From contig JAIESZ010000110.1 in assembly GCA_019745615.1 (NCBI GenBank), positions 1-46,017 of the forward strand: a DNA stretch of 46,017 bases. The letters run 5' to 3'. Each line of letters begins with the position of its first letter. Position 1 is the first letter of the stretch. Shown piece after piece: positions 15,225 through 30,866 of the stretch. The notes beneath the pieces are model-generated. The model was not told where the DNA came from, did not search any database, and saw only the letters and a program-made list of their open reading frames with translations. This stretch comes from Burkholderiaceae bacterium (lineage in GTDB: Bacteria; Pseudomonadota; Gammaproteobacteria; Burkholderiales; Burkholderiaceae_C). The position numbers and the translations under genes are program-made.

Positions 15225-15254
15225 GGCGGATTAAAAATGGAAGGTTTCGAACCA
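15225..15254. other. Left att junction (host arm / phage 1 arm)
   Basis: aaatGGAaggtttcgaacca matches the middle junction aaacGGAtgatttcgaccca at 16/20; both are followed by a GCCGGG..CCCGGC-T8 terminator. Confidence 0.7.
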
Positions 15255-15272
15255 AGATGACTAGACCAAAGT

Positions 15273-15296
15273 GCCGGGTTCACCCGGCTTTTTTTT
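15273..15296 (+). terminator. Intrinsic terminator on the phage 1 att arm (would follow the repressor in the circular form)
   Basis: GCCGGG-TTCA-CCCGGC-TTTTTTTT. Confidence 0.8.
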
Positions 15297-15313
15297 GCCT
15301 GTGAGTCGCTCCT

Positions 15314-15625
15314 TCAATGGGCTAACTCGAACGGATGCACCTGAATGTCTGCATCAGGAAACGAGGCAACCAGCTTCAACTCGCCCCCAAGGGCTTTGAC
15401 GTACTCCCTCAGTGTGCTGACATACATGTCGTCCCGGTGCTCCAACTTGGAAACCGTGGCCTGTTCCACACTCATGGCCTTGGCTACTTCCACCTGTGTC
15501 ACCTTGCGGGCTTTGCGCAGCTCTTGGAGTTGCATTTCCACCAGCATGGCCTCAGCGCGTGCAGCAGCACGAGCTTGGGCCTCCGGTGACATTTTGGTGC
15601 GCAATTCGCTGAACTTCTTAGCCAT
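15314..15625 (-). CDS. XRE-family HTH antitoxin (HigA-like)
   Basis: LQELRKARKVTQVEVAKAMSVEQATVSKLE..DMYVSTLREYVKALGGEL; overlaps toxin stop. Confidence 0.9.
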   Translation of the reverse strand: MAKKFSELRTKMSPEAQARAAARAEAMLVEMQLQELRKARKVTQVEVAKAMSVEQATVSKLEHRDDMYVSTLREYVKALGGELKLVASFPDADIQVHPFELAH

Positions 15626-15989
15626 TGATCTGCCCTTCCTTTCTCAAAATTTCGATGTGCGTGTCATACAGCTTGTCAGCTATCGGAACATGAACTTCAT
15701 ACCAGCGGTCATTGCCAGTTTTGTCACCACCTAGCAAGAGGATGGCACTACGGCGCGGGTCAAACGCATAGAGAACCCGATAGGGCCGGCCTTCATGCTG
15801 TACCCGCAATTCACGCATATGAGAGTGCCTTGACCTCTCAATTCCAGACGTATGGGGGAACCCAAGATTCGGCCCCTTCTCTTCCAAGAGCCGAACCGAT
15901 GCATCAATGGATTCCTGTTCAGCTTCGGTCAGGTCAGCCCACCACTCACCAAGCTCATCGGTGTATTCCACTTCCCACTTACCGGACAT
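15618..15989 (-). CDS. RelE/ParE-superfamily toxin (HigB/Gp49-like), toxin-first TA
   Basis: GPNLGFPH..I..SRH.HMRELRV...GRPYRVLYAFDPRR.AILLLGGDK. Confidence 0.9.
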   Translation of the reverse strand: MSGKWEVEYTDELGEWWADLTEAEQESIDASVRLLEEKGPNLGFPHTSGIERSRHSHMRELRVQHEGRPYRVLYAFDPRRSAILLLGGDKTGNDRWYEVHVPIADKLYDTHIEILRKEGQING

Positions 15990-16023
15990 TATTCCCCCTA
16001 ATGAGTATTCCTTCAAGTGCATA
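15990..16023 (-). promoter_or_regulatory. Two tandem imperfect palindromes upstream of the toxin, probable antitoxin operators
   Basis: TATTCC-N6-TGAGTA (15990-16007) and TATTCC-N6-TGCATA (16006-16023), overlapping the RBS. Confidence 0.45.
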
Positions 16024-16039
16024 TTTTGACACCATTAGA

Positions 16040-16618
16040 TCATTTCAAACTGCTAGAGCAGGACTTGGTGACGCGATACACCGACCGCTTGACTACAGAA
16101 ATCGACACCCCATAGCGGGTAGCAAGCCCCTTGAACGTGTGAGCGCCAGACTGGTAGAGCGCTACCAGTTCGGCCTCTTGCATCACAGTCAGAGCGCGAG
16201 GACGACCCGGCATGTGACCCCTATCGCGTGCAGCTTGCTGGCCTGCAATGCTTCGTTCACGAATAATGCCCCGCTCAAATTCAGCGAACGCGCCCAACAT
16301 TTGCATCATCATGCGGCCTGCCGGACTGGACGTGTCTATCGCTTCGGTCAGGCTGCGGAACGTGGCCCCGGCGGCTTCGATCTTGTCAACTATCTTGAGC
16401 AGGTCTATCAAGCTGCGAGCAAAGCGATCCAGTTTGTAAACGAGCACACAATCGCCGCGCTGGAGCCGGGACAGCAAGCGATTGAGTTCACGCCGCGCCC
16501 CGACTGAAGAGGTTTTTTCTTCGACGATGACTGTGGCCCCAGCACGAGTCAGGGCGTCAATTTGCAAGTGGGTATCCTGATGAACTGTAGAAACCCGCGC
16601 ATAACCAAAGATGGCCAT
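16040..16618 (-). CDS. Small serine recombinase (resolvase/invertase family), prophage 1 integrase
   Basis: GYARVST catalytic Ser, YKLDRFARS, GAFAEFER..IRER, GRPR plus C-terminal HTH. Confidence 0.93.
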   Translation of the reverse strand: MAIFGYARVSTVHQDTHLQIDALTRAGATVIVEEKTSSVGARRELNRLLSRLQRGDCVLVYKLDRFARSLIDLLKIVDKIEAAGATFRSLTEAIDTSSPAGRMMMQMLGAFAEFERGIIRERSIAGQQAARDRGHMPGRPRALTVMQEAELVALYQSGAHTFKGLATRYGVSISVVKRSVYRVTKSCSSSLK

Positions 16619-16954: not shown

Positions 16955-16998
16955 CAGCGCATAAACGTAACGAGTGACGCAAAAAAAGCAGCGCAAAG

Positions 16999-18204
16999 TT
17001 ACGTGGTTTTGCGAGCCATGCCGGGGGTGATTCCGGGGGGCAGCGTGGGATGGGCAGGGGAACTGGGGGGCAATATCTGCGGGGGCCGAGACTCAGCCAG
17101 AGGATTGATGACGCCGGAATTGAGCGGGGGAGATTGCAGCGCTGGAGCAGTGGCAGTAGCCGGGGCCGGTGCCGGAGCTGGTGCAGCAGCTACGGTGTAA
17201 GGGTCAAACGGGGGCGATACGATCCAAGTGCGGCATTGATCGTCTGTCAAACCAGCGGAAGTACCTTGCTGGGTGACACAAACGCAACGGGTAGAGGTGC
17301 ATGCACCACCGGCAATACGGGGCAGATTGATAACCTTGCGAACCTCGTCATAAGCCGGGGCGGTTTCGGGCTGGCCTGAAATGCGGGGGGTGAAATCGGG
17401 CAGCGCTGGTGCAGGAGGGGCTACAGAAGGCACGGCGGGGGGTGGCAAAGGGCTGTCTTTGGGCAAGCTACCAGCAGGGCTAGAAGGGGCCGTTTTTGGG
17501 GCCTGTGTCTGGTCGGGCTTAACTGCCTTGGACATGGATGAAAACAAGGTAGGGGCCAAAGCAATGCCGCCAACGATGGCCAGAATGGGCACAACCACAA
17601 AAACAGGAATCTTCTGTTTTTGCTTGATGTGCATCTCACTGGACTTGTAGAGACTAAACGCCGACTTGGGATAGCTCCACAGGCTTTTCGTGGCCCCTTG
17701 CACGCGGGTGGTGTCAGCCTGACAGCCATCCCAGTCATAGAGCAGGGAACGACCCCCGCCAAACACGCGCCGCACATGAATGTGACGCCCAACAAGCCGC
17801 CGGACGTTCTGATCCAGAAGCATGGGGTTTTGGGTGATGAGGACAAAATCCACGCCCTTGTGGCGGTGGGTTTCGAGGTTTGCAACATAGTCGGGCACCT
17901 TGGCACCCATGCTACGGGGCCGCCAGTAGCGTTGCACCTCGTCAACGACAAGCAAATCGCCGGGTTTGCACCAGTCGTGCCATGTGTTGAGGCCCTGACC
18001 ATCTTCACAGGTCAACAAGCCTTTGTCATCAGGCTTGCACGGGGCCATCAGATGCTTGTCGTATGCGAGCTCGGGGATACCATCGACCACGAGCCGCCGA
18101 GCATCCAGTTCAGCCGGTTTTTCTTTGAGCAGGTCAGGTATGAGCTTGGCAACGGTGTAGAGAGTTTTGCCGCTACCGGGGTTGCCCGTGATGAGATAGA
18201 TCAT
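16999..18204 (-). CDS. Zot-like assembly ATPase (pI)
   Basis: LITGNPGSGKT Walker A, VVDEVQR Walker B, THRHKG.D..LITQ; single TM; Cys-containing periplasmic domain. Confidence 0.95.
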   Translation of the reverse strand: MIYLITGNPGSGKTLYTVAKLIPDLLKEKPAELDARRLVVDGIPELAYDKHLMAPCKPDDKGLLTCEDGQGLNTWHDWCKPGDLLVVDEVQRYWRPRSMGAKVPDYVANLETHRHKGVDFVLITQNPMLLDQNVRRLVGRHIHVRRVFGGGRSLLYDWDGCQADTTRVQGATKSLWSYPKSAFSLYKSSEMHIKQKQKIPVFVVVPILAIVGGIALAPTLFSSMSKAVKPDQTQAPKTAPSSPAGSLPKDSPLPPPAVPSVAPPAPALPDFTPRISGQPETAPAYDEVRKVINLPRIAGGACTSTRCVCVTQQGTSAGLTDDQCRTWIVSPPFDPYTVAAAPAPAPAPATATAPALQSPPLNSGVINPLAESRPPQILPPSSPAHPTLPPGITPGMARKTT

Positions 18205-18485
18205 TTGCCTGTTACCCAGCGTGTAGCAGATGCAGCCGTCCAGACCGCGACACGGGCCGACATGGCCCCCAAAATAAGGCCGATGGCTTGGGGGACACCG
18301 GCAAGGCCAGCAAGGCCCAGCAGATCAGAGGGCAGGCCCGCATAGTTGGTTTTAACGCCTTGGATGAGGAAATCCAAAGATTCGGTAACGCCGGTAAACG
18401 TCAAGATGGAGATGCCGACCATCGTTAAAACACGGATAGCCAACGGGCCGATCATCGACATCAAAAAAGCAGCCAAGGTGGTCAT
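18201..18485 (-). CDS. pVI-like minor coat protein (DUF2523-like)
   Basis: 94 aa hydrophobic protein between pIII and Zot with ATGA overlaps. Confidence 0.8.
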   Translation of the reverse strand: MTTLAAFLMSMIGPLAIRVLTMVGISILTFTGVTESLDFLIQGVKTNYAGLPSDLLGLAGLAGVPQAIGLILGAMSARVAVWTAASATRWVTGK

Positions 18486-19951
18486 GCTTTTAATCCACCG
18501 ACAAACACATAACCAGCAATGACCGAGGCGATGAGCAGCACAACGGTTTTAGCGTAGGTGGCTACATCACAGGCAGGCTGATAGCTCAAGGCATAAGACC
18601 GACCGAAAACGGAGAAGGGAATGGGTGGAGGGCAAAGACCAGCACCGCCCAGATCGACAGGTGTGATAGTGATGCTCTGGTCTTTTTTAGGGAGTTCACC
18701 GGGTTCCGGGGGAGTGCCATATTTAGAACAGCCGATGCGTTCAGGATCGATTTCACAAGGGTCTTTAGGGTCTTCTTTGGGAGGCGGCTCGTTTTCTATA
18801 GTTTGGGTTTTTGTGTCGTTGTTATTGATGGTGATGTTCGTGGTGTTGTTGGTGATGCTACTTTCTGTCTTGTTCGTAGTGTTGTAGATGATCTTGTCAC
18901 CCTGATAAGTGATGTTTGTAGTGCTGGTCGTAGTAGTGGTTTTGGTGCCAGGGTCAGTCGGAGAGGTGGCGGGAGCTGCTGGCGTGTTTGTACCAGGGAC
19001 AAGGGGAACGGGCTCAGTAGCGGTAGTTTTTGGGCCAGATACGCTAGAGGGGCCGCTAGTGGCCGTGGAAGCTGGGTCGGTGGGCACTTCAACGCCGGGG
19101 GATTGCAGCATCTTGCGAATAAGTGGAGCAGCAGAAGAAGGCCAGGCAGAGGAAGAGGCTATTTTGTCGGCTATTTCTTGCTCAGTTACTGTTCGATTAG
19201 TAGCGCCTTGACCTTCACAACTGCCATCTGATTGTCTAACCCAGCCGGAAGGACAAGGAACATCACGGGAAGAAATGGAAATTTGCCAACGATTAACAAT
19301 CGTAACGACAGTACCGTTATAACCGATACCAGTCCAAGTCGCTTGGCAAACATAGCCAACCACGATTCTAGCGGTAACTTCACCATCACCCGGCCAAGCA
19401 GTTTTACAAGCCTCGTCAGGGGATTTATTCCAACCGTTCCCAACAGAAAACTCTTTACCAGAAATGTTATCAATAGTTTTAGTGACAATATCAGCTTCTA
19501 ATTGACCGTTATTATTTTTAAGAGATAAAGACTCAGAGCCAAAGGTATCTTTCAAAAAATCAACGAGTTCGGCAGCGGCAATCACATTACCAACAACAGG
19601 CAAGAGCTTGCCAAATTTAATAACAGACGAAGAAAGTTGAGCGCCGCCCTTTACTTTGGCCTGCACATCAATAACAACATCTTTGTTATTGATAGGCAAA
19701 GGCAGGGATTGTTTGACAATAGGGACGTTAGAAGGGCCAGCAGTTACAACAGGGAGCCATCCAACATTAGGGGTAATGGTTCCATTTGTTGGAGTATTCG
19801 GGGCAGTAGAGGGAAACCAGTTAATTGAATGGCCACCAGTAAGGGTAGCATTTTTAAAAGTACCAGCAGCATGAGAAGCTAGCGAAACGCCAGCCAGAGC
19901 AGAAAAAAGCAGCCCACAACGGAGGAGAGCAAAACAGGGTCTAGCATTCAA
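18482..19951 (-). CDS. pIII-like adsorption protein (TspB-like C-terminus)
   Basis: Probable TTG start at 19951; signal peptide ending SHA; Thr/Pro-rich linker; C-x6-C, CP.P, YQPAC and C-terminal TM anchor. Confidence 0.8.
   Translation of the reverse strand: MNARPCFALLRCGLLFSALAGVSLASHAAGTFKNATLTGGHSINWFPSTAPNTPTNGTITPNVGWLPVVTAGPSNVPIVKQSLPLPINNKDVVIDVQAKVKGGAQLSSSVIKFGKLLPVVGNVIAAAELVDFLKDTFGSESLSLKNNNGQLEADIVTKTIDNISGKEFSVGNGWNKSPDEACKTAWPGDGEVTARIVVGYVCQATWTGIGYNGTVVTIVNRWQISISSRDVPCPSGWVRQSDGSCEGQGATNRTVTEQEIADKIASSSAWPSSAAPLIRKMLQSPGVEVPTDPASTATSGPSSVSGPKTTATEPVPLVPGTNTPAAPATSPTDPGTKTTTTTSTTNITYQGDKIIYNTTNKTESSITNNTTNITINNNDTKTQTIENEPPPKEDPKDPCEIDPERIGCSKYGTPPEPGELPKKDQSITITPVDLGGAGLCPPPIPFSVFGRSYALSYQPACDVATYAKTVVLLIASVIAGYVFVGGLKA
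19879..19947 (-). CDS. 22-aa hydrophobic microprotein (pIX-like) overprinted on the pIII signal region
   Basis: MLDPVLLSSVVGCFFLLWLAFR*; positional and motif counterpart at 28163-28234. Confidence 0.55.
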   Translation of the reverse strand: MLDPVLLSSVVGCFFLLWLAFR

Positions 19952-19952
19952 T

Positions 19953-20240
19953 TCAAGCCTCACTAGGTTTTTGAAAAATATAGATAATGCGCTTAACTGC
20001 CCAAATGGCCGATGCAGCAACCAAAATAGCACTAAAAACAGCACCAACAGCGGCGTAATGTTCAGGACTGGACTGAAAAACAGATAGAGACTTGATTTCT
20101 CCAGCAGTCATCAAAACAAGCTCAGTATCTGCACAAGCAGTGCCCCCGGAAGAAGACACGACGAGAACAGAGGAAACAACAGGGTTAGAGCCGTAAATGG
20201 CAACTGGTGAACCCACAGGCAACACTTGAGCGCAGATCAT
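19953..20240 (-). CDS. Minor virion membrane protein (pVII/pIX-like)
   Basis: 95 aa, two Cys, C-terminal TM then basic residues; upstream of pIII. Confidence 0.65.
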   Translation of the reverse strand: MICAQVLPVGSPVAIYGSNPVVSSVLVVSSSGGTACADTELVLMTAGEIKSLSVFQSSPEHYAAVGAVFSAILVAASAIWAVKRIIYIFQKPSEA

Positions 20241-20244
20241 AGGT

Positions 20245-20275
20245 AAAAAACCCGCCAGAATTAACTAGCGGGTTT
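20245..20275 (-). terminator. Central terminator after the coat genes
   Basis: AAACCCGCTAG-TTAATT-CTGGCGGGTTTTTT on the minus strand. Confidence 0.75.
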
Positions 20276-20278
20276 AGG

Positions 20279-20575
20279 TCAAAATTTAAAGTTCCGCCCT
20301 AAAGTAGTGTCGCCATTATCAAACCAGTCATCGTCATCAAAACCGGAAGGCTTTGAGAATTCTTTATATTCAGCATCCATAATGCTAGAAGCTGAATTCC
20401 TAGAAGATGATTTCTTAGAGGATGGTTTAAAAAGGCCAATTACTTTACGTAAGCTCCAAACCAATGCCCCCATGACAAGCATGGCGGACAAAAGGGCAAG
20501 AAGAGCCATTTTGGCGGCTTCGATCAAGGCGGGAACAACAGCCGCAACGACCGCTGTTACGATACCCCCGCCCAT
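20279..20575 (-). CDS. Major-coat paralog with basic/acidic C-terminal tail
   Basis: LVWSLRKVIGLF versus GVWGLRKVIGMF in the adjacent coat protein. Confidence 0.65.
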   Translation of the reverse strand: MGGGIVTAVVAAVVPALIEAAKMALLALLSAMLVMGALVWSLRKVIGLFKPSSKKSSSRNSASSIMDAEYKEFSKPSGFDDDDWFDNGDTTLGRNFKF

Positions 20576-20580
20576 GACAA

Positions 20581-20853
20581 TTAGCGGCCAAACATACCGA
20601 TGACCTTGCGCAAGCCCCAGACGCCTACGGTAAGGGTAAGGATAGCCGCCAGAACGGCCAACATAGCGGTTTGAGCATCAGAAACCGCCGTGGTGGCAGC
20701 AGTGACGTCCAGAGCGGCATGGGCCGAACTGGCCGACAGAGCCGCAACAATGGCAGCCGAAGAAATGCCAACGCTGGCGGCTTTGGCTTTGATCTCGTCG
20801 CAAACAGATTGCAGGTTGATGGCTTCGAGACGGGCTTTCACAAACTTGGTCAT
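20581..20853 (-). CDS. Major coat protein (pVIII-like), prophage 1
   Basis: Leader ending SAHA, 44-aa mature amphipathic/TM helix, basic C-terminus; GGAG RBS. Confidence 0.85.
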   Translation of the reverse strand: MTKFVKARLEAINLQSVCDEIKAKAASVGISSAAIVAALSASSAHAALDVTAATTAVSDAQTAMLAVLAAILTLTVGVWGLRKVIGMFGR

Positions 20854-20891
20854 TTTGACACTCCAAAAGAGGTTAAAAAATGGTGCAAGGA

Positions 20892-20948
20892 AATTGCACC
20901 CGGAAGCCCTCGACGTTTCCCAACGCTGGAAGGCTACCGGTTGCAATC
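20892..20948 (-). ncRNA. Conserved 57-nt hairpin upstream of the coat gene, copy 1 (candidate cis-regulatory RNA or ssDNA signal)
   Basis: 47/57 identical to 28847-28903; compensatory and G-U-compatible changes; GNRA loop. Confidence 0.6.
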
Positions 20949-21014
20949 TCTTTGGGAATCACCCCACGCACGCGGGCCGAGCCCGCTTGCTGCGTGGGGT
21001 TCATCCCAAAGAGA
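20947..21014. repeat. Long imperfect inverted repeat (11+10+6 bp stems)
   Basis: TCTCTTTGGGA/TCCCAAAGAGA, ACCCCACGCA/TGCGTGGGGT, GCGGGC/GCCCGC. Confidence 0.75.
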
Positions 21015-21019
21015 AACCA

Positions 21020-21100
21020 CTAAACCGACAGATAAGCCAGCGCTGAAAGAACACCGAAACCAGCGAAGGTGCCAAGAAAAAGAAGGGAGATGTTTTTCAT
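21020..21100 (-). CDS. 26-aa hydrophobic microprotein (gene VII position)
   Basis: MKNISLLFLGTFAGFGVLSALAYLSV*; ATGA-coupled to the SSB stop. Confidence 0.45.
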   Translation of the reverse strand: MKNISLLFLGTFAGFGVLSALAYLSV

Positions 21101-21417
21101 TGCTCAACAGCATCGAAAGTATTTTGAATGGGAACTACGGTTGTAGATTCGCCGGTTTTTTTATCGACGACTTCATAAGCCTTACGCTTATATCCGCCGA
21201 TCTTGCAAAGAACCTGAACATCATCACCACGCTGGCCCAAAACAGCATTGCTACGAATCTCAACAATACCGGGGCGGCTGTAAGGGTCAGGGGCAGGAAT
21301 GGCAACCAGGGAAAGCCGAACATCTTCAAAACGGCGGAAAGACTCAAGACGACCAGCAATCAAGCACTGATTGGGGCCAATTTTCTGAGGGGTGATTTGT
21401 GGGGTAGGTACAGACAT
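21097..21417 (-). CDS. ssDNA-binding protein (pV-like), prophage 1
   Basis: 106 aa directly after Rep; PAPDPYSRP..VEIRS..LG..G motif recalled from betaproteobacterial inoviruses. Confidence 0.7.
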   Translation of the reverse strand: MSVPTPQITPQKIGPNQCLIAGRLESFRRFEDVRLSLVAIPAPDPYSRPGIVEIRSNAVLGQRGDDVQVLCKIGGYKRKAYEVVDKKTGESTTVVPIQNTFDAVEQ

Positions 21418-21425
21418 AATTTCCT

Positions 21426-22667
21426 TTAAGCAGCAAGAGAAATGAACGAAGGAGAAGGTATACGGTAAAAGTCAGGAGGGGCCACAGGGCCAAGGGTGAT
21501 AATTTTCATAGGTTGAGCCAAGCCGGTAATGTTTGATTTGATCGAAATATCCACGCCGTAGGGCAGCAAAGCAGCACGGTGACGAAAAAAAGTTGGCCGA
21601 GACAAATGCTTAGAAATATCATCACCAGCTTGCCACATGCGATATGTAGCAAGGTACTGTTTAGGTAACTCCGAAAGCTGGTCAGCCTCGCAAGTGGTAC
21701 GGGTAAAAACCTCTTGCCGTTTTTGAAAATCAGCGTGGATAACATTCATGTTAAAGCCCCCAAGATAGTTAAGGCCAGAATCTATTAAAAATGTGGATTT
21801 ATATGTCGTTTCAAACCGGACTAGGCCAATGTCCGAGCACCATTGTGCTAAATCAATAATATAAGGGTCGTGAATCTTGGAAAATTGCGTGATTTCTGTT
21901 TTGAATTTCTTAGGGTTGCCGATGTGTTTAAAAAGCTCCGGGCCTTTCAGGTAGGCTTTGGAGTAAACGCGCCGAGAGCCGCGCCCAAAGTCCACGGTTT
22001 CACCCTCACCGTGGGTGCCCGTCTTGAGGCGGGAGGCTTGTTGACTGGCGAGATGGCGCATGAACGCATAGGCGTTTTCACGCGAACCAGCGGCAAAATT
22101 TTGGGTGATGTCGATGCGGGTGATACGGGCACCCGTCCACGAGGGTTTCCAATCGCCATCAGTGCCTATACGGTGATCTGCCGAGCGCTGGCCACAAGTG
22201 AAAGCAGGCAGGCCCAAGGTGTGCAAAAACGCATTGATACGCTGGATGCACTGCGCCAAGGTGAACCCAAAAACGTTATCTGGGCGAGCGAACTTTGAAA
22301 CGTTGCCCTCAAACCAGACGGTTTCACCATCACAGCGGACAAAAAGAGCAGTTCCATGGCTGCCCTCGATGCGGAGCTTCTTGAGCGTAGTGGACTCATG
22401 GACACCATGCGCGTCATAGCGCACAAAAGCCCCATCGTTGACCAGCGGCAGACCGGGGCCATGATGCTGATACAGGCTCAACCAGTCGCAAAAGGTGCCC
22501 TCTTGATGCCACTGTTCAGGCCGGGGGGGAATCATCAAAAATGATAGCGTTTCTGTTTCACTATGTGATAAAAAATGGCGATTTGTCTCACCGGTGAGAC
22601 TAAAGTGACGTGTTACATGCACGTCACTTTTTTGGAGCGCCGGAAAAGTTGCCGAAACCGCAGCCAT
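21426..22667 (-). CDS. Replication initiator, phage/plasmid II/X family
   Basis: DWLS, EGSHGT, GNVSKF.RPDNVFG, RIDIT, TVDFG..SRR..KAYLKG, VRFE; start at 22667 (TGATG-coupled) or 22535. Confidence 0.85.
   Translation of the reverse strand: MAAVSATFPALQKSDVHVTRHFSLTGETNRHFLSHSETETLSFLMIPPRPEQWHQEGTFCDWLSLYQHHGPGLPLVNDGAFVRYDAHGVHESTTLKKLRIEGSHGTALFVRCDGETVWFEGNVSKFARPDNVFGFTLAQCIQRINAFLHTLGLPAFTCGQRSADHRIGTDGDWKPSWTGARITRIDITQNFAAGSRENAYAFMRHLASQQASRLKTGTHGEGETVDFGRGSRRVYSKAYLKGPELFKHIGNPKKFKTEITQFSKIHDPYIIDLAQWCSDIGLVRFETTYKSTFLIDSGLNYLGGFNMNVIHADFQKRQEVFTRTTCEADQLSELPKQYLATYRMWQAGDDISKHLSRPTFFRHRAALLPYGVDISIKSNITGLAQPMKIITLGPVAPPDFYRIPSPSFISLAA
22585..22630. other. Probable double-strand (rolling-circle) origin of prophage 1
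   Basis: Perfect 16-bp palindrome GTCTCACCGGTGAGAC next to an 11-bp hairpin AAAGTGACGTG-TTACATG-CACGTCACTTT at the 5' end of rep. Confidence 0.6.
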
Positions 22668-22873
22668 CAAACAGCCCCCCGGCATTCAGCCAGCCCGGCA
22701 GGCGTGACGCTACGCTTGACGCCTGCCGGGCTGTCCGAATGCTTAGAAGGCCGACCGGGGCCGCGTGGCGGCACCAGATCAACGCCGGGTAGAGCTTGCT
22801 GCAAGCGGAAGGCATCCAAGGCACTAAAACGGCGCACAGGGCGTCCGAGGTGGCGAGCGAAGGGGGAGGTCAT
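22667..22873 (-). CDS. Small hypothetical phage protein
   Basis: 68 aa; translationally coupled on both sides; PRGPGRPSK motif. Confidence 0.45.
   Translation of the reverse strand: MTSPFARHLGRPVRRFSALDAFRLQQALPGVDLVPPRGPGRPSKHSDSPAGVKRSVTPAGLAECRGAV
22691..22733 (-). other. Possible single-strand origin hairpin
   Basis: 15-bp perfect stem CAGCCCGGCAGGCGT; loop carries TAGCGT on the coding strand (ssoA CS-6-like). Confidence 0.45.
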
Positions 22874-23298: not shown

Positions 23299-23774
23299 CG
23301 AGACGACGGCATCTTTTAGCGAAAGAGGATCAGTAATGAACAAAGTCATAAAAGTCGAGCTCCTATGTCTGCTGTTCTTGGCAGGCACCACAGCACTGAG
23401 CCAGCCCATCTACCGCTGCGAGTACCAAGGAAAAATTGGGTATTCGGATGAGCCTTGCATGAACGCCAAAGTTGTAGATGTACTGCCCACCGAAGGGGCG
23501 CACAGCCTTAGCGGAAAGAAAACCTCGAATGCACGCTCTCGACAGGAAGAAACCCGAAAAATGATCGATAACATCCTGATGCCCGTCACAGGGTTGACAC
23601 ACGAGCAAATGAAGGTCGAACGACGAAGAATGAAGCTGCCTGCGCAAGACAAATTCGAGTGCACTTGGCTGGACACAAAAATCAATGCCAAGAACGTGGA
23701 TGAGGCCACCCTGTACCAAGCGCGAAAACGGTACTTTGATCTCAGATGCTGAAAAAAGAAAATCCCCCTGCGCC
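23255..23774. repeat. 21-bp direct repeats (23255-23275, 23754-23774) flanking the DUF4124-like gene
   Basis: AAAAGAAAATCCCCCTG[T/C]GCC, 20/21 identical. Confidence 0.85.
23336..23752 (+). CDS. Secreted DUF4124-like protein, antisense cargo
   Basis: Signal peptide, IYRC....IGYSDEPC, C-terminal LRC; GAGG RBS. Confidence 0.75.
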   Translation: MNKVIKVELLCLLFLAGTTALSQPIYRCEYQGKIGYSDEPCMNAKVVDVLPTEGAHSLSGKKTSNARSRQEETRKMIDNILMPVTGLTHEQMKVERRRMKLPAQDKFECTWLDTKINAKNVDEATLYQARKRYFDLRC

Positions 23775-23899
23775 GGTAGGCCCGGAGCGTCCAAACTGAG
23801 GGCGCTACTGGTTACAGCAGGGGGAGTTTCAGGGAACAGTGTAGTGGTATTCGGGTGCATGGACGCTCCTAGGTGTAGAGTTCTGATTCAAGATCAGAG

Positions 23900-23944
23900 C
23901 GTCATCAAATTGATGACGCATCCAACGTTATCAGAAAGCTGACG
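23900..23944. promoter_or_regulatory. Two 19-bp operators in the divergent control region of prophage 1
   Basis: Palindrome CGTCATCAA-A-TTGATGACG (23900-18) and degenerate CGTTATCAGAAAGCTGACG (23926-44) abutting the repressor ATG. Confidence 0.65.
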
Positions 23945-23946
23945 TC

Positions 23947-24270
23947 ATGAGCAACCAAATAACCGAGTTAATCAGTAAGGCATCTGCGATTACTGGCAGC
24001 GATTACGCACTGGCCGCACAGCTAGGCGTACCGAGACAAATGGTGTCGATGTGGAAGAAAGAAGCACGGCCATGCCCACCCGAAGAGCAAGCAAGAATTG
24101 CCGACATTGCAGGTTTTGACCCAGTAGAAGCACTGGTAAATGCAGTGCTGGAGCGCCATGCAGGAACGCCGAAGGGAGAGGCGTTGTGCCGCGTACTCAA
24201 ACGGCAGCGGGGGCAAAACAAAAAGCCCCCTGAATTGCTTCAGGGGGCCAGTGTTGGCGGAAACGGATGA
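23947..24270 (+). CDS. Prophage 1 repressor (HTH, phiRSM ORF15-like); 3' end crosses the att junction
   Basis: SDYALAAQLGVPRQMVSMWKK HTH, PCPPEEQARIA; divergent from phage genes. Confidence 0.85.
   Translation: MSNQITELISKASAITGSDYALAAQLGVPRQMVSMWKKEARPCPPEEQARIADIAGFDPVEALVNAVLERHAGTPKGEALCRVLKRQRGQNKKPPELLQGASVGGNG
24215..24248 (-). terminator. Phage-supplied terminator downstream of the tRNA-like att arm
   Basis: GCCCCCTGAA-GCAA-TTCAGGGGGC-TTTTTGTTTT on the minus strand. Confidence 0.75.
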
Positions 24271-24280
24271 TTTCGACCCA
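24254..24280. other. Middle att junction (phage 1 arm / phage 2 arm)
   Basis: TTGGCGGAAACGGA identical to 30791-30804; reverse complement resembles a tRNA-Ser 3' end (CCGTTTCCGCCA). Confidence 0.8.
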
Positions 24281-24284
24281 GCAG

Positions 24285-24311
24285 GCCGGGCTAATTGCCC
24301 GGCTTTTTTTT
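24285..24311 (+). terminator. Intrinsic terminator on the phage 2 att arm
   Basis: GCCGGGC-TAATT-GCCCGGC-TTTTTTTT. Confidence 0.8.
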
Positions 24312-24888
24312 AACCCAACGAAGTTGAGTTTGGCCGGGTGACACGGTACACCGCACGCTTGATGGCAGAGGATGACACGCCAAAGCGCACAGACAGGCCA
24401 TGCAGGGTATGCACGCCCGACAAGTAGAGCCGAACAGCTTCGGCCTCCTGTTCAGCAGTGAGGCTGCGAGGACGCCCCGGCAGATGGCCCCGATCTCTGG
24501 CCGCTTTTTGGCCTGCAATAGAGCGCTCCCGGATGATGTTGCGTTCAAATTCGGCAAAGGCCCCGAACATTTGCAGCATCATGCGGCCCGCAGGGCTAGA
24601 GGTGTCTACCGATTCGGTCAGGCTTCGGAAGTTAGCCCCCACGGCCTCAATTTTGGCAATGATGCTGAGTAAATCCAGCAGGCTACGGGCGAACCTGTCC
24701 AGCTTATAGACGAGGATGCAATCACCCCGGCGGAGCTTTGCAAGCAGGGCCGAGAGTTCACGCCGAGAGCGGACGCCGGAGGCTTTTTCCTCAATGATGA
24801 TGGTGGCACCGGCACGGGTCAGGGCATCAATTTGGAGATGGTTTTCTTGGTGCGTTGTAGAAACGCGGGCGTAACCGTAGACGGTCAT
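24310..24888 (-). CDS. Small serine recombinase, prophage 2 integrase
   Basis: GYARVST, YKLDRFARS; about 73% identical (manual, gapless 192 aa) to 16040-16618. Confidence 0.93.
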   Translation of the reverse strand: MTVYGYARVSTTHQENHLQIDALTRAGATIIIEEKASGVRSRRELSALLAKLRRGDCILVYKLDRFARSLLDLLSIIAKIEAVGANFRSLTESVDTSSPAGRMMLQMFGAFAEFERNIIRERSIAGQKAARDRGHLPGRPRSLTAEQEAEAVRLYLSGVHTLHGLSVRFGVSSSAIKRAVYRVTRPNSTSLG

Positions 24889-25143
24889 TTGCTGCACTCA
24901 TAGACGAGGGCAGCGGGCACCAACGGCGGATGCCCCAAAGGAGGCAGGGCCACCCCGCCCGCCCCTGCGCTGCGCTTGCATGGCCGGGCATGGTTTCCCT
25001 GCTTTATCAAGCGGGGCAAAAATACCGTTTAACAAGGCGCGAGGGTGCCCCCGTAGAGGTGCAAAGGTAGGAGGACGCGAAAAGGCGGCAGGGACTGGCA
25101 GCAAACAGGATGCAGCAGGGAAGATCGACTGACAACGCGGCAA

Positions 25144-25238
25144 CATGGTGCAGACGCGGCTTCGACAGTGTGAGCACATCGACGGGCCAGCACGCGACAA
25201 CGCCAGAACATCAGGGGCGGTGCCCCCGATACCCCCAA
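25144..25238. repeat. Conserved 95-bp non-coding element, copy 2
   Basis: 91/95 identity to 16860-16954, same position between zot and recombinase. Confidence 0.85.
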
Positions 25239-25273
25239 AGAGGTAGAGTTCTGCCAAGCAAAAAAAGGGGGTG

Positions 25274-26494
25274 CTATGTTCGACGGTGGGGGTTTAGCAA
25301 GTTGGGCGGTGGCAATGTTCCAGCGGTACCCGTGGGGTATGTCGGGTGTGCTGGTGATGACGGTGGGAGCACTTGGGGCGGTCTTGATTCGGCTAGTGGG
25401 TTTAGGGCACCGCCGACATTCAAAGGTGCGGTTCCGGTTACGGTCTGCACAGGAGCAGGCGCGGTTTCGGCCTGTTTCGACGGTGTACCAACCGAAGGTG
25501 TTCCGGGGGCAGAGGCGACCGCCTGAACCTTGACGGTGTAGGGGTCAAACGGGGGATTGTCGAGCCATGCGCGGCACTCATCAGAGGTCAGACCCGAATC
25601 GGTGCCCTGTTGCGTGACACACTTACAGCGGCCCTTGAAACAGACAGCGCCAGAGACGAGCGGCATATTGACGACTTGCCGAAGCTGGTCGTATGCGGGG
25701 GCAGTCTCTGGCCGGTTCGAGATGCGTGGGACAAAGGCGATGCGCTCATCCAGTAGGCCGGAGGGCATAGCATCAGCGGGCAGGGTGCCCGTCTTGGGGT
25801 CATAGCCAATCACAGGGCCAGAGGCTGGAGCAGGGGCAGTCGTGGGCTTTGACTGGGCTACAGCAGGTGGGGTGGGCTGTATCTTGGCAGAGATGGAACC
25901 ATAGGCGCGCCAGCCAAGGAACCCGATAGCCAATAGAGCAGCCAATAAGACAAACAGCACACGAGGCACAGAACGCACCGGCTTGACGTGCAGAGATGCA
26001 CTTTTGTACTGACCGAAGATGTGCTTTGGCAGTTTGTAACGCTTTTTGACTGGAGCAGCTTTCCAGCCCGTGCGGCAGTTGTCGGCAGTCTCAGGCCATT
26101 CATACCACCAGCGCCCCAGAATACCAATATCACGCAAATGAACATGACGCCCAACCAGTGCCCGCACGTTGCTGTGTACGAGGTTTGGGCCTTGGGTGAT
26201 GATGTAGAAATCTAGGCCACGGTGGCGGTGGGTTTCGAGCTTCTGAATGCTATCCAGCAGTTTCTGACCGGGGCCAGAGGGACGCCAAACGGTTTGCACC
26301 TCATCAATGATGACGACTGCGCCATCAGGCACGGTATCGGGCCACTGTGCCGGGTCATCAAGGACGATATGAGGGATTTTCAGTTCAGGGATGCCGTGGG
26401 CATAAATGGGCCTGTCCTTGCCCAGTTCCTCCAGCATGGAGACCAACGCAGCCGTTTTGCCCGCACCGGGGGCACCTGTAATGAGGGTAATCAT
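25274..26494 (-). CDS. Zot-like assembly ATPase (pI)
   Basis: LITGAPGAGKT, IIDEVQ, THRHRGLD..IITQ; TM; PETAPAYD domain. Confidence 0.95.
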   Translation of the reverse strand: MITLITGAPGAGKTAALVSMLEELGKDRPIYAHGIPELKIPHIVLDDPAQWPDTVPDGAVVIIDEVQTVWRPSGPGQKLLDSIQKLETHRHRGLDFYIITQGPNLVHSNVRALVGRHVHLRDIGILGRWWYEWPETADNCRTGWKAAPVKKRYKLPKHIFGQYKSASLHVKPVRSVPRVLFVLLAALLAIGFLGWRAYGSISAKIQPTPPAVAQSKPTTAPAPASGPVIGYDPKTGTLPADAMPSGLLDERIAFVPRISNRPETAPAYDQLRQVVNMPLVSGAVCFKGRCKCVTQQGTDSGLTSDECRAWLDNPPFDPYTVKVQAVASAPGTPSVGTPSKQAETAPAPVQTVTGTAPLNVGGALNPLAESRPPQVLPPSSPAHPTYPTGTAGTLPPPNLLNPHRRT

Positions 26495-26772
26495 GTGCCA
26501 GACTTCAAACCAATGCGCTTCAACGCCACGAGGGAAACGGAGGCCACCAGCCCCCCGGAAATGATGCTCAGGGCCGTGATGCACCCGGATATGCTCAGGA
26601 TGGCGGCCACCTCAGGGGCAAGTCCAGACATGGCACCTTGAGCAGATGCAATCGCGGCATCCAATGCAGCCTTCAAGCCGACGTACGAGATGACACCAAG
26701 GCCCATAGCGGCCAGCACGCGGGAAACGATGGGCCACGCAATAGCGGCGAGGAAAGAGCCGAAACCGCCCAT
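26491..26772 (-). CDS. pVI-like minor coat protein (DUF2523-like)
   Basis: RVLAAMGLGVISYVG; position between pIII and Zot. Confidence 0.8.
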   Translation of the reverse strand: MGGFGSFLAAIAWPIVSRVLAAMGLGVISYVGLKAALDAAIASAQGAMSGLAPEVAAILSISGCITALSIISGGLVASVSLVALKRIGLKSGT

Positions 26773-26774
26773 GC

Positions 26775-28184
26775 TCACGTCCTCCTAGCCACAACGATGA
26801 CCATGGACACCGCAGAGAGCCACGCCATCGCAATCACAAGGGGGCGCAGGCCGGTAGCAAAGTCGCACACGGGCTGCCATGAGATCGAAACCTCTTTACC
26901 GGCCAACATAACGGAGCGAGGAGTGGGACAAGCCGCAGTGTCAGAACCCCAACCGGCCACCGGAGAAATGCTGATACTGATGTCTTCTTTGGCGAGTTCC
27001 TTAGCGTCTGGTGTATCCAGTTTCTGGCAAGCCAAAATCTCAGGATGCTTCTCACACAGTGACTGCTGTTCTTCAGGCTTTGCCTTGTCGTCTTTGCCGG
27101 GGTCAGTGGCGGGAGCGGGATTTGTTGCCGGGTCAGGCTGGGGGTTTAGCTCATCGGTTGATTTAGGCGTGGGGGACGTTGTGGGGCGGTTGACTGGCTG
27201 GACATCGACGCGCCAAGGCTCATCCAGTGTGGGACTGGGAACAATGCGCACACCAGGCTGAAAGTAGGGCTGGTTTTGCGGACTGGGGGCGGCGTTGGGG
27301 TCGTAGTTGGGGTTAGGTACAGGGTTGCCAGTAGGCACAAAGTAGGGCTGTGGCTTGGGGTTATCGCCGGGGGTGGGGTTGATGATTGGCTGTTCAACGG
27401 GTAGAGGGGTGCCGGGGGGCAGTTCATTAGGCACAGTAGAAGGCATGGGCCAATCGGCAGGAACATTCGGCCAAGGCTTAGGCTTCATTATTTCAGGTTC
27501 AAGTTGCTCAGGAGTAGTTAAAGGCGAATCAGAACCGGATTTAAGACGACACCCCGCAGGAGTAGTTTCCCAACCAGAAGGACATGGGGCAGGACGCGAA
27601 ACAATTGAAACTTGCCAACGATTAACAACCGTGACGACCGTACCATAAGCACCCATGCCAGTCCAATCAGCATAACAAACAGAACCCTGAACATGCCTAG
27701 AAACAGATTCACCGGGCCAACCAGACTGACAAGCTTTATCGGGAGACGAAAAATAACCATAACCAACAGAATACTGTTTCCCATCAGTTTCTTGTATGGT
27801 TTCGTTAGTCTTAACCCACATTTGTTTAGATTCATCCCACATAACTTTAGCAGCCGCCAAAAGAGAGGCGATGCCGATAGCAGCACGCAAACCGGGATGA
27901 GCAAAAATAGCCGCAGCAGCAAAACGCGGAGCATTGGCAGCTAGGCGCATAGCTGCGGGAACCTTAATAGCTTGCCCGCCAACATTCAAACCGGCATTCA
28001 CCCGAACTGTTTGATTTACCCATGCTGCCTCATTTGCCGCAGCATAACCATAGCGCGCAATCGGAGCGGCAGCAGGCATGGGTGCAAAACCGGCAGGCGG
28101 GGCAAGCTGGGCATAGCCAGCATGGGCCGAAACCCCAGCAACGGCTAAAAGGCACGCTGCGGCTAACTGCGAAAAACGAGCCAT
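26775..28184 (-). CDS. pIII-like adsorption protein (TspB-like)
   Basis: Signal peptide SAHA, Pro-rich linker, LCEKHPEILAC, CPTP, WQPVCD, C-terminal TM. Confidence 0.85.
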   Translation of the reverse strand: MARFSQLAAACLLAVAGVSAHAGYAQLAPPAGFAPMPAAAPIARYGYAAANEAAWVNQTVRVNAGLNVGGQAIKVPAAMRLAANAPRFAAAAIFAHPGLRAAIGIASLLAAAKVMWDESKQMWVKTNETIQETDGKQYSVGYGYFSSPDKACQSGWPGESVSRHVQGSVCYADWTGMGAYGTVVTVVNRWQVSIVSRPAPCPSGWETTPAGCRLKSGSDSPLTTPEQLEPEIMKPKPWPNVPADWPMPSTVPNELPPGTPLPVEQPIINPTPGDNPKPQPYFVPTGNPVPNPNYDPNAAPSPQNQPYFQPGVRIVPSPTLDEPWRVDVQPVNRPTTSPTPKSTDELNPQPDPATNPAPATDPGKDDKAKPEEQQSLCEKHPEILACQKLDTPDAKELAKEDISISISPVAGWGSDTAACPTPRSVMLAGKEVSISWQPVCDFATGLRPLVIAMAWLSAVSMVIVVARRT

Positions 28185-28234
28185 GTAGCCCCCAAAATCG
28201 CGGCTACGACCGCGTAAAACTCAGGTGTTGCCAT
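28163..28234 (-). CDS. 23-aa hydrophobic microprotein (pIX-like)
   Basis: MATPEFYAVVAAILGATWLVFRS*; bridges the upstream gene and the pIII start. Confidence 0.6.
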   Translation of the reverse strand: MATPEFYAVVAAILGATWLVFRS

Positions 28235-28571
28235 AATCGGAATGGGTTTCAGATTCGACGCGAACATGGCGCGCAAGCGCAGAAAGACCCCAAGCGGCCA
28301 GCCAAACAGCAACGATGGCCCAAGCGATAGACAGGCCATCAGACGCCGTTAAAAGGCCGCAGGGCTGCGGCTGGAGAGATACAGTGGAAACCAGAGGAAC
28401 GCCCCCAGCAAGAGGCGTGAGCGTGTAGATGATAGTGTTATCGGTGACGGACTGGACACCAACGACACGGGCCGTTCCACCGTCAACGATGACCGCACCC
28501 ACTTGGGACGAGGCCAGCGCAGACAAGGCGGAAGCCGGGGAGCTATAGCAAGCGGCACCAGCTTGGAACAT
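28221..28571 (-). CDS. Minor virion membrane protein
   Basis: MFQAGAACY...PQPC..DGLSIAWAIVAVW; C-terminal TM; follows the coat gene. Confidence 0.7.
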   Translation of the reverse strand: MFQAGAACYSSPASALSALASSQVGAVIVDGGTARVVGVQSVTDNTIIYTLTPLAGGVPLVSTVSLQPQPCGLLTASDGLSIAWAIVAVWLAAWGLSALARHVRVESETHSDYGNT

Positions 28572-28580
28572 CAGACAGCA

Positions 28581-28817
28581 TCAGGTACCGCGACGCAAGA
28601 GCTTGAAACCAGCAATGGCAATGACGATAACCAACACCAAACCGCCCAATGTAGTAACGTCGGTTTTAACATCACCCAAAGCGGTTTCAACGCCAGCAGG
28701 CAGGGCAGCATGAGCCTGACCGGCGAGCATCAAAACACCGGCACCAGCGGTTGCAACAGCGTTGCGGGCAGATTTCAGGTTCATTACTTCGAGACGGGCT
28801 TTCACAAACTTGGTCAT
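28581..28817 (-). CDS. Major coat protein (pVIII-like), prophage 2
   Basis: Leader ending QAHA; mature ALPAGVETALGDVKTD..TM..FKLLRRGT. Confidence 0.88.
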   Translation of the reverse strand: MTKFVKARLEVMNLKSARNAVATAGAGVLMLAGQAHAALPAGVETALGDVKTDVTTLGGLVLVIVIAIAGFKLLRRGT

Positions 28818-28846
28818 TTTATTTTCTTTCACGTAGAACAGTGCAG

Positions 28847-28903
28847 GATTGCACCCGAAAGCCCTCGACGTTTCACAACGCTGGAGAACTTTCGGCTGAA
28901 ATC
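28847..28903 (-). ncRNA. Conserved 57-nt hairpin upstream of the coat gene, copy 2
   Basis: Same length and fold as 20892-20948; GUGA loop. Confidence 0.6.
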
Positions 28904-28904
28904 A

Positions 28905-28920
28905 TGTTTCACATGAAACA
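28905..28920. other. parS-like palindrome
   Basis: TGTTTCACATGAAACA, 15/16 to TGTTTCACGTGAAACA. Confidence 0.4.
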
Positions 28921-28926
28921 TTATGT

Positions 28927-29861
28927 TCAGTGAATAGTGGGAGTTGAAAGCCAACTGAAAGGCCCGGAGGGGTTGATTTTCTTGGGGGTTTCCCGGATTC
29001 TGATAAAAGTAGTGAAGCAACTTCCGAGGGGCACCCATTCGGAAAATAAAACTTCTCCCGTGTCAGCATTGAAATAGCCGCCTCCCGGCGCAGGCTTGAA
29101 GCGCTCTCCGACTTGAGCATTACCCTGCACATACGCAGGCCACATAATCCAACGACGAATGTCGCGGCTAGACTCATCCAGACCACCGCAACCGTGAATT
29201 CTTGCGCCATGAGGAAAGGTTCCAACGTTTTTGGATTCGATCTTGCTTGCATATTTCATGAGATAAGCGACCGGGGCAGTTGAACGGAGCCGGTTACTCA
29301 TGCCATGAGGCCACATAGGTGGTTCGACATAGACATTGCCATGCCGGTCTTTGCGCCGCCATGCTGTATCAGCCTTGGGAGGGGTCAAACCAGCGGCCAG
29401 CCAGACAATGACGTGATAGTGAATAACGCCCCGTTGCTGGAGTTCAGCAACCCACGCATAACGGACAGTTTTGGAGCGCGTGCGGCTGTAGTGCCAGCGG
29501 CGGAGGCCGTCAAGGTAGCGGCTAATGTGTTCGGGTGCCCAGTCGCCGTTATCGCCCGCATAGGTCAAGGTTTGCATCCAAACCTGTTGGTTAAGGGGGC
29601 CTTGGTTGTGGAGCTGCTTTGCAGCCACGCTGCAGCCACGCCGAGACCCTTGCGAAGACGGGTCACACGGGCTTTTGCTTTATCAATCGTTAGCTTGCAA
29701 GTTGTTGATACTGAGACAAGCCCAGCCGCTGCGCGGCTCTCAGCCAGCGCTATGCCATCCATGCGCGTGTGCATAGGCTTGAATGCCAGCACAGAGGCAG
29801 GAACGAGCCCAGAAGCGACCTTGAAGGCCGAGACGTGGCTAGAGTGGACAGCGGCAGCCAT
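28927..29861 (-). pseudogene. HUH rolling-circle Rep (phiLf/Cf-like) frameshifted by an 11-bp tandem duplication
   Basis: TLTY, YAWVAELQQRG.IHYH, WPHG, YLMKYASK; removing one TGCAGCCACGC copy restores a 307-aa ORF. Confidence 0.85.
29620..29641. repeat. Perfect 11-bp tandem duplication
   Basis: TGCAGCCACGC x2. Confidence 0.95.
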
Positions 29862-29862
29862 G

Positions 29863-30057
29863 TTAGAAGCCTTCCCCGGCCACAGGTAGACCGTGGTGGG
29901 TATAGGTCAAATCAATGGAATAAATACCGTGCTCAAGGGTGGACAGGGTAAGGGTGATACCGTCCACATGCTTGTGGGCTTCTGCCTGTTCCGCCAGAAG
30001 CGAGAGCAGGGCAGATTGCAGGGCGACCAGCCGGGCGGCGTGGTGAGCGTCTTGCAT
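29863..30057 (-). CDS. Small hypothetical phage protein
   Basis: 64 aa, tightly packed between SSB and Rep. Confidence 0.6.
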   Translation of the reverse strand: MQDAHHAARLVALQSALLSLLAEQAEAHKHVDGITLTLSTLEHGIYSIDLTYTHHGLPVAGEGF

Positions 30058-30062
30058 GATGC

Positions 30063-30389
30063 TCAGACCGAAGCAGGAGTAAGGGACTTGAAGAAGTCTT
30101 GAGCAGCCTTGGCCGCTTCGGAATAGGTCAACAGCCGAATCTTGGAGATGGCAAGACGGGGGAAGCGTTCACGAGTCAGGTAGAGACCATCACCGGCCAT
30201 AACGTAATCGTTGACAGGGTAGGGCTTCTGGTCATCAGAAAGGAAAAAATCAAAGGCTTGAGGGTACTTGTCAGGGTTGCCTTTGGCATCTTTGAAGAAG
30301 CCCCAAGCCCGCTGTTTGCGGTAAATTTCGCCCTCTTTGGATTTGACAGTTTCGACGTCAGCAGAGTCCACTTGTACGCGAATGAACAT
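30063..30389 (-). CDS. ssDNA-binding protein (G5P/helix-destabilising-like), prophage 2
   Basis: Y.KQRA..YPQAFDF.L..DQKPYP..DY pattern; first phage gene. Confidence 0.7.
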   Translation of the reverse strand: MFIRVQVDSADVETVKSKEGEIYRKQRAWGFFKDAKGNPDKYPQAFDFFLSDDQKPYPVNDYVMAGDGLYLTRERFPRLAISKIRLLTYSEAAKAAQDFFKSLTPASV

Positions 30390-30430
30390 AGAAAGCCCGT
30401 TGGGTGTAGAGTTAAAGAAAGAGAAAAATC

Positions 30431-30479
30431 CGTATCCTTTTTGGATACGTCAGGGCGAAATGTACCCTAAAAGGAAACA
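30431..30479. promoter_or_regulatory. Two 19-bp operators in the control region of prophage 2
   Basis: CGTATCC-N5-GGATACG (30431-49) and degenerate TGTACCC-N5-GGAAACA (30461-79). Confidence 0.65.
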
Positions 30480-30482
30480 CAA

Positions 30483-30866
30483 ATGCAAGAGTTGACAGAA
30501 CTTTTAGAGAAAGCCGCAACGGTTTGCGGCAACTATTCACGTCTGGGCGAAGAACTGGGAGTGAGCCGCATGACAGTCAACCAGTGGAAGACAGGCGCGA
30601 AGCCATGCCCACCAGAAGATCAAGCGCGAATTGCTGATCTGGTGGGGCTTGACCCTGTAGAAATGCTGGTAAATGCGGTACTAGAGCGCCATGCAGGCAC
30701 TCCGAAGGGAGAGGCGCTTTCTCGCGTACTGGGAAAGTGGGCACCCACAAAGCAAAAAGCCCCTAGCGAGGTGCTAGGGGCTGATGCAAATTGGCGGAAA
30801 CGGACGGTTCAGGGGCACAGAGAATTCCATCCGTTGCCAGACGCCATTTTTAACCAGTTTCCATAG
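30483..30866 (+). CDS. Prophage 2 repressor; reads across attR into host DNA
   Basis: NYSRLGEELGVSRMTVNQWKTG HTH, PCPPEDQARIA; homolog of 23947-24270. Confidence 0.85.
   Translation: MQELTELLEKAATVCGNYSRLGEELGVSRMTVNQWKTGAKPCPPEDQARIADLVGLDPVEMLVNAVLERHAGTPKGEALSRVLGKWAPTKQKAPSEVLGADANWRKRTVQGHREFHPLPDAIFNQFP
30749..30782 (-). terminator. Phage-supplied terminator downstream of the tRNA-like att arm
   Basis: AGCCCCTAGC-ACCTC-GCTAGGGGCT-TTTTGCTTT on the minus strand. Confidence 0.75.
30791..30812. other. Right att junction (phage 2 arm / host arm)
   Basis: TTGGCGGAAACGGA, after which similarity to the middle junction ends. Confidence 0.8.

Follow-up and report, generated by a model that had tools for sequence, protein, structure and literature searches.

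We analysed a 46,017-nucleotide (nt) stretch of DNA from a Burkholderiaceae bacterium (GCA_019745615.1, contig JAIESZ010000110.1, positions 1 to 46,017; hereafter the window), in which two tandem inovirus prophages occupy positions 15239-30804. The minus strand of each prophage encodes Rep, coat, Zot/pI and a resolvase-family recombinase, and a single plus-strand helix-turn-helix (HTH) gene stands at each right end. Both HTH open reading frames (ORFs) cross a 13-nt core, at 24255 and 30792, that is the 3' end of tRNA-Ser(GCT) reversed. The features central to this attachment (att) arrangement are listed below, with protein lengths in amino acids (aa).

15239-41, plus strand: attL crossover GGA of phage 1, at an off-target host site
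15242..15304, plus strand: P' arm of phage 1, open solely in the frame of repressor 1, with the read-through stop TGA at 15302-04
15273..15296, plus strand: predicted intrinsic terminator 1, with a 6-base-pair GC stem and U8
16040..16618, minus strand: small serine recombinase of phage 1 (Resolvase, PF00239)
23947-24270, plus strand: repressor-like HTH gene 1, 107 aa integrated, 127 aa on the circle by read-through
24255..24270, plus strand: hybrid att between the phages, comprising the core, GGA 24265-67 and TGA 24268-70 from the arm of phage 2
24285..24311, plus strand: predicted intrinsic terminator 2, in the P' arm of phage 2
24310..24897, minus strand: small serine recombinase of phage 2, convergent with the repressor gene on the circle
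30483-30866, plus strand: repressor-like HTH gene 2, 127 aa here (host TAG 30864-66), 131 aa on the circle by read-through
30792..30804, plus strand: attR core, with crossover GGA 30802-04

Repressor-like genes crossed by the attachment site

A preliminary description of this DNA, made from the sequence alone, had proposed that both repressor ORFs cross the att crossover at GGA 24265-67 and 30802-04. Empty sites bear this out. In the sister genome G002 the same site is empty, with window position 15241 joined to 30805, and contigs of runs X1, X3, X6 and X7 (four positive among seven sequencing runs searched, from two studies) leave out 15563 bases at 15238/30802, where 3 letters are ambiguous, which together place the crossover within GGA. 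One contig in run X6 rejoins 30804 to the integrase of a phage-2 relative, consistent with either a circle or tandem repetition; none of the contigs from the seven runs contained the exact circle joints of the window phages themselves. In run X3 a phage-2 relative reached a contig depth of ~1300, the empty host site being at 969, and its repressor end ran into two different sequences at equal depth, one apparently the tRNA.

The prophage array occupies an off-target site outside any tRNA gene, since the window gave no tRNA, tmRNA or Rfam match. The natural site, tRNA-Ser(GCT), is on contig C125 of the same genome, where it adjoins a truncated copy of repressor 1 at 94%. The 5' part of this remnant (C125 3160-3430) appears, on reading by eye, to be replaced by a piece of an IS3-type transposase. 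A scan of viral contigs with a 14-nt core gave mostly noise.

We rebuilt the circular form of each phage from its two ends. On the rebuilt phage 1 circle the repressor has 127 aa and its stop (15302-04) lies past the U8 at 15289-96; on the phage 2 circle it has 131 aa and stops at TGA 24339-41, past the U8 at 24304-11. The stops lie 6 nt (phage 1) and 28 nt (phage 2) beyond the assumed release point of the hairpin and U8. These tails are the ones the preliminary description gave, and its further observation that neither arm is open in the frame of the other repressor, and that arm 1 is open in the cognate frame alone, was reproduced. Its account of the integrated ends stood in part. Phage 1 does acquire a TGA at the junction, but from the arm of phage 2 and not from the host. 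Phage 2 does end at a host TAG (30864-66), but at an off-target site; because the array sits there, this stop falls 59 nt from att and leaves a 20-residue tail, whereas the same frame at the tRNA would stop at 17 nt. In phage-1-type phages at the tRNA the integrated tail is 14 aa and the circle tail 20 aa. With lengths so nearly equal, the presence of a stop or the sequence of the tail must make the difference, not length.

Taken with the family data given below, this comparison strongly supports a change of the regulator's C-terminus upon integration, a tail switch, as the preliminary description had put forward. We think it probable that the exchange of the tail and the earlier stop convert an unstable circle form into a stable prophage form.

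We infer the name repressor from protein family, gene position and homology with phiRSS0 ORF13, a remote homolog of the window HTH proteins (hhalign 90%, E 1.5e-6; PHROG 638 common to both). Both HTH proteins match PHROG 638, "transcriptional regulator". Their best Pfam match is YdaS, below cut-off, and the fold matches, to P22 c2 and 434 Cro, are weak, which counts against the switch proposed below. Foldseek with an HTH protein model gave no match at E 0.001, the folds returned being only those of HTH repressors and Cro. Searches with tblastn in phage and plasmid collections yielded nothing useful, repressor 2 having no match in the phage collection. The same YdaS and Cro matches could fit a Cro-like or pro-replication protein, active in its circle form and weakened or retargeted by integration. 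We regard this as very improbable, since the integrated form retains the whole predicted fold with a clean early stop and phiRSS0 ORF13 has been proposed as an immunity factor. In the model of repressor 2, residues 1-86 are folded and the chain is disordered after 90 (predicted local distance difference test below 50 from residue 90), which places the att junction in a predicted disordered tail.

Stop-codon depletion among relatives

Relatives were gathered by repressor and integrase profile searches. The first set comprised 43 junctions of the serine-recombinase kind: 39 had both att copies, one came from a terminally repeated contig and three were directly assembled. Clustering of the arms at 70% left 40. 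Left out of this count were 24 repressor loci without a placeable second att (among them L288, with a direct junction and a long tail, and L339, which entered the hold-out as a closed arm), 10 integrase loci lacking any repressor match, two dif-type loci without a clear core, hybrid junctions, three near-duplicates, and five rebuilt dif-type arms, two of which have a stop within 48 nt. The closest named records include Giesbergeria and Simplicispira; genus searches for further cases found few. The junctions fall into nine target classes: tRNA-Ser (GCT, TGA and CGA), tRNA-Gly, sites beside cyaY, nadK and rlmE, and two unlabelled. The names cyaY, nadK, rlmE and tRNA-Gly were read from the sequence by eye and not from a tool result, and we count nine classes instead of ten because the anticodon loop, where visible (L295, L441), reads TGA.

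Stops in the repressor frame were strongly depleted beyond att. Within 48 nt, none of the 40 arms had a cognate-frame stop, where a dinucleotide shuffle expects 14.7, against 23/40 and 14/40 in the other frames (frame permutation P 2e-8). The 48-nt limit was picked after seeing the data; 30 and 39 nt also give zero. Excluding the first 15 nt left 0/40 cognate stops against 17/40 and 11/40, and in the 17 arms whose integrase stop lies more than 48 nt away the counts were 0 against 11 and 4. All three values of integrase phase relative to the repressor occur. The circle stop was farther than the integrated stop in every one of 39 pairs; the integrated stop lay at most 2 nt from the crossover in 21/39 pairs and in the earliest-stopping frame in 36/39. 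At nadK- and cyaY-type sites the TAA of the prophage is TAC on the circle. Of the 555 proteins found in one lineage, the best 120 include 86 that end exactly at a four-residue core motif and 13 that run on. In a repressor tree (untrimmed ORF ends, long branches) the targets are interleaved.

One whole prophage, L015, has an N-terminal domain 84% like that of repressor 2 together with the tail, frame and P' arm of phage 1, and its frame is open, suggesting that repressor tail and P' arm swap as one module. In L344, L441 and L449, attL duplicates about 50-70 nt of the repressor's own 3' end, giving a second tail copy at the left junction.

The 48-nt rule was then fixed in advance and applied to a hold-out of 79 new loci, from which 22 junctions were built and 15 non-redundant ones kept, nine of them directly assembled. 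Automatic junction rules misplaced short-core crossovers, and hold-out values come from direct junctions or from a hand-checked register; the directly assembled L389 and L420 equal the circle predicted from the prophage ends of L390, which validates the rebuild for that type. In 13/15 the stop was lost and at least 11 codons were gained. Of the two exceptions, L375 carries its repressor and integrase as a joined pair in the chromosome, at a distance from the Rep gene, and in L380 no Rep or Zot match was found; post hoc, we take both for rearranged relics. Pooling gave 55 non-redundant arms with two cognate stops within 30 nt, against 25 and 16 (P ~1e-6, kin not being independent).

Several results weigh against a selected switch. 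The 48-nt rule failed in the hold-out, where 5/15 arms were closed (stops at -2, 11, 31, 31 and 43 nt) against 5 and 7 in the other frames (P 0.47), and within 30 nt the counts were 2/15 against 5 and 7 (P 0.08). Taking one arm per target class gives P 0.06, and in the lineage above three of the 13 extended proteins have tails of at most 10 aa (protein data alone). When the spacer was shuffled with the hairpin fixed, the probability of an open frame was 0.49 for arm 1 and 0.81 for arm 2; both window arms would thus often be open by chance, and the two window cases alone do not go beyond chance, whereas the family does.

These results, the protein tails apart, would suit an explanation in which there is no switch: the early stop is selected in the prophage alone, the open circle frame arises incidentally from the symmetry of the integrase arm, GC-rich hairpins, overlap in antisense with the integrase gene and common ancestry, and the terminators do no more than insulate the integrase. 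A further point in its favour is that the tail of repressor 1 holds an apparent captured host tRNA terminator. Each repressor tail contains a terminator-like hairpin oriented for a tRNA:

24224..24249, minus strand: terminator-like hairpin for tRNA, within the tail of repressor 1
30758..30782, minus strand: terminator-like hairpin for tRNA, within the tail of repressor 2

The tail of repressor 1 (window 24220-24255) is near-identical to the host-side attL hairpin in L017 (2520-2575), and the phage therefore seems to carry a captured host tRNA-Ser terminator, read in frame. We nevertheless consider the absence of a switch quite unlikely. The depletion is still present at 15-48 nt and at a distance from the integrase, occurs with all three integrase phases, and extends across nine target classes in arms less than 70% alike, while a switchless phage could stop before att, as RSM and Rs551 do.

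Terminators, tails and the proposed switch

Under the proposed tail switch, the HTH protein would repress a divergent replication promoter. On the circle its message would end at an in-frame terminator 43-54 nt past att, the stalled ribosome would be rescued by transfer-messenger RNA (tmRNA), and the product would be tagged and degraded. Transcripts that read through would yield a 20-24 residue tail, likely a protease handle, which would be the only possible route in relatives without a terminator. With the repressor destroyed, replication could proceed; after integration the stop would precede the end of the message, and the repressor would accumulate and keep the prophage quiet.

The terminator part of this scheme was examined in the first set, with terminators called blind to frame. 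A terminator was called in 19/40 arms, and in 16 of these 19 the cognate frame is open to the release point; the other frames are open in 6/19 and 15/19 (shuffle P 0.002; frame permutation P 0.03). In arms with a terminator, stops made up 3/354 codons before release and 15/367 after it (Fisher P 0.007); arms without one had 0/336 up to 48 nt and 9/318 beyond. All five tRNA-Ser(GCT) arms with a terminator call are open; relaxing the rule brought in only two more from the 21 arms without a call, and these too are open. The hydrophobicity of read-through tails slightly exceeds background (P 0.02-0.03). Both tmRNA and SmpB are present in 2/2 near-complete sister genomes; neither was found in G000 (85% complete).

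Other observations speak against a non-stop message or a degradation tail. At the terminator one non-cognate frame (+2) is open in 15/19 arms, hardly fewer than the 16/19 of the cognate frame, and in the other 3/19 arms the cognate stop precedes the terminator. Arms with no terminator call, which end in a real stop, make up 21/40 of the first set and 14/15 of the hold-out, where a terminator was called just once, and the dif-type relatives with a terminator call stop before it (2/2). No clear degron motif was found: the last residue is non-polar in 12/24 cases against 24/66 in the background (P 0.18). In Escherichia coli, ribosomes are reported to partly repress terminators late in an ORF, and in one construct coupled ribosomes cut the efficiency of such a terminator to 40% (PMC4824070), so that a mixture of tagged and read-through products is expected. 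Beyond these points, where the terminator ends more than 60 nt out (five non-redundant arms) the stop comes first in three; neither window circle tail has an LAA-like end, and hold-out tails are short, basic and not hydrophobic. A scan of the window found 22 terminator-like sites against 18.7 in shuffles and does not by itself validate the hairpins.

Depletion in arms without a terminator, stops ahead of far terminators and the rarity of hold-out calls suggest that selection across the family is for loss of the stop and gain of a tail, and a non-stop message seems to follow where a terminator is near, as in both window phages. As a family-wide rule, the non-stop message proposed in the preliminary description was rejected, since the arms without a terminator call end in a real stop. 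For the two window phages and their near kin the non-stop (SsrA) route is plausible, and tmRNA tagging as the main route in the window pair is a serious possibility, somewhat short of probable. More broadly, we put forward as a tentative conjecture that a widespread group of betaproteobacterial inoviruses uses integration as a lysogeny switch in which the repressor receives its stop codon from the host target, while in one branch the free phage encodes a stop-less repressor message so that host tmRNA destroys the repressor until integration.

The switch could also be real and non-proteolytic, the tail altering oligomerisation, DNA specificity or partner binding, or acting at the RNA level through overlap with the integrase message. 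This accords with the short, basic hold-out tails and the missing degron motif, with the many arms that overlap the integrase 3' end, and with a proposal by Yamada 2013 that the long and short forms of phiRSS0 ORF13 differ in function. We judge it unlikely: the tails of the arms have no common sequence, a better fit to a non-specific penalty, and in 16/19 terminator arms the complete tail can be made only by read-through.

Comparison with known systems and further observations

The closest proven precedent is BPs, a tailed phage in which attP lies in the repressor gene and integration removes a gene-encoded ssrA-like tag; integration-dependent immunity is ascribed to BPs and to clusters G, I, N and P in papers citing the original work, Broussard 2013 (PMC4557955, PMC9262239). 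Like BPs, the window phages have attP within the repressor ORF, a tRNA target, a stop made beside the core and a longer viral form, with the integrated form shorter in 39/39 pairs (107 vs 127 and 127 vs 131 aa in the window). In BPs, as reported, the tag is encoded and a tyrosine integrase is co-transcribed with the repressor. Here we found neither an encoded ssrA-like tag nor such an integrase: the phages are inoviruses with a convergent small serine recombinase on the opposite strand, an in-frame terminator and non-tRNA targets as well, and the tails show no conserved encoded tag and no significant bias in the last residue. The feature is real and selected; judged strictly by these traits, it is not integration-dependent immunity of the BPs type.

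The preliminary description knew of no such switch in inoviruses. For attP inside a regulator this was mistaken, as phiRSS0 ORF13 (156 aa, 130 aa on integration) and XacF1 ORF12 are attP-bearing inovirus regulators (PMC3816273, PMC4471427, PMC4076744). The window phages share with phiRSS0 a homologous HTH regulator crossed by attP (the comparison covered phiRSS0). They differ from both, which use dif and host XerCD, in having their own recombinase and a tRNA-like core, and the circle form of phiRSS0 stops before the downstream U-tract whereas the window circles stop after theirs. Sister clades with the same repressor families and no integrase (L023-L031, L162-L169 and many of L391-L439) run over a dif-like site in two or three frames, and their XerD arm often holds a stop, as it does in phiRSS0.

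With phiRSM1, RSM3 and Rs551 the window phages share a resolvase-type integrase (53% to Int2), the inovirus core genes and a 13-nt core at the tRNA-Ser 3' end, the last by core sequence and by relatives integrated there, the window array being off-target. The repressor of these phages is reported to be unchanged by integration (PMC5608472, PMC3816273); it ends 36 nt ahead of attP and lies in the same orientation as the integrase gene, whereas the window repressors cross att and are convergent with theirs. L199 and L204 have the RSM layout, with the integrase co-oriented, yet their repressor ORF apparently reaches or crosses the att end.

In brfA and arfA, an intrinsic terminator within the ORF precedes the stop and feeds trans-translation (PMC8012679). 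The rebuilt circles resemble brfA in that a predicted terminator precedes the stop codon; brfA and arfA are described as constitutive feedback on ribosome rescue, with no DNA recombination switch. Our literature search, outside which subscription journals largely lay, turned up neither a serine-recombinase inovirus with this layout nor a recombination-gated non-stop repressor, and no terminator/tmRNA version in inoviruses. What appears to be new is the spread of the switch layout over serine-recombinase inoviruses, with a possible tmRNA route.

What decides between episomal production and a quiet prophage in filamentous phages is largely an open question, to which the pattern offers a minimal answer that needs two genes and a single site and recurs at nine kinds of target. 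It would widen the BPs switch to include single-stranded DNA phages and small serine recombinases, and turn the idea raised for phiRSS0 into a family-wide pattern. If tmRNA tagging holds, host trans-translation and protease load would set the balance between integration and production, and recombination-gated ribosome rescue would act as a developmental switch. The annotated length of such repressors depends on the att state that was sequenced.

The remaining features of the two prophages are as follows.

15314..16022, minus strand: HigBA/RelE-type toxin-antitoxin cargo of phage 1 (HTH_37 and Gp49-like)
16999..22685, minus strand: inovirus core of phage 1 (Zot/pI, TspB-like, coat, Phage_CRI Rep)
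23882..23919: two palindromes 5' of repressor 1, candidate operators
25274..30389, minus strand: inovirus core of phage 2 (Zot/pI, TspB-like, coat, REP_ORF2-G2P Rep, single-stranded-DNA-binding protein)
30431..30449: palindrome 5' of repressor 2, candidate operator

The array is positioned just upstream of a host ORF of about 600 aa (13427-15219) with many CxxC motifs, C-terminal membrane segments and no Pfam match. Contigs of the sequencing runs contain joints between phage 1 and phage 2 at 20822/28787 and 16879/25164, within common stretches of 34-35 nt; these possibly reflect hybrid phages formed by homologous recombination, or assembly paths.

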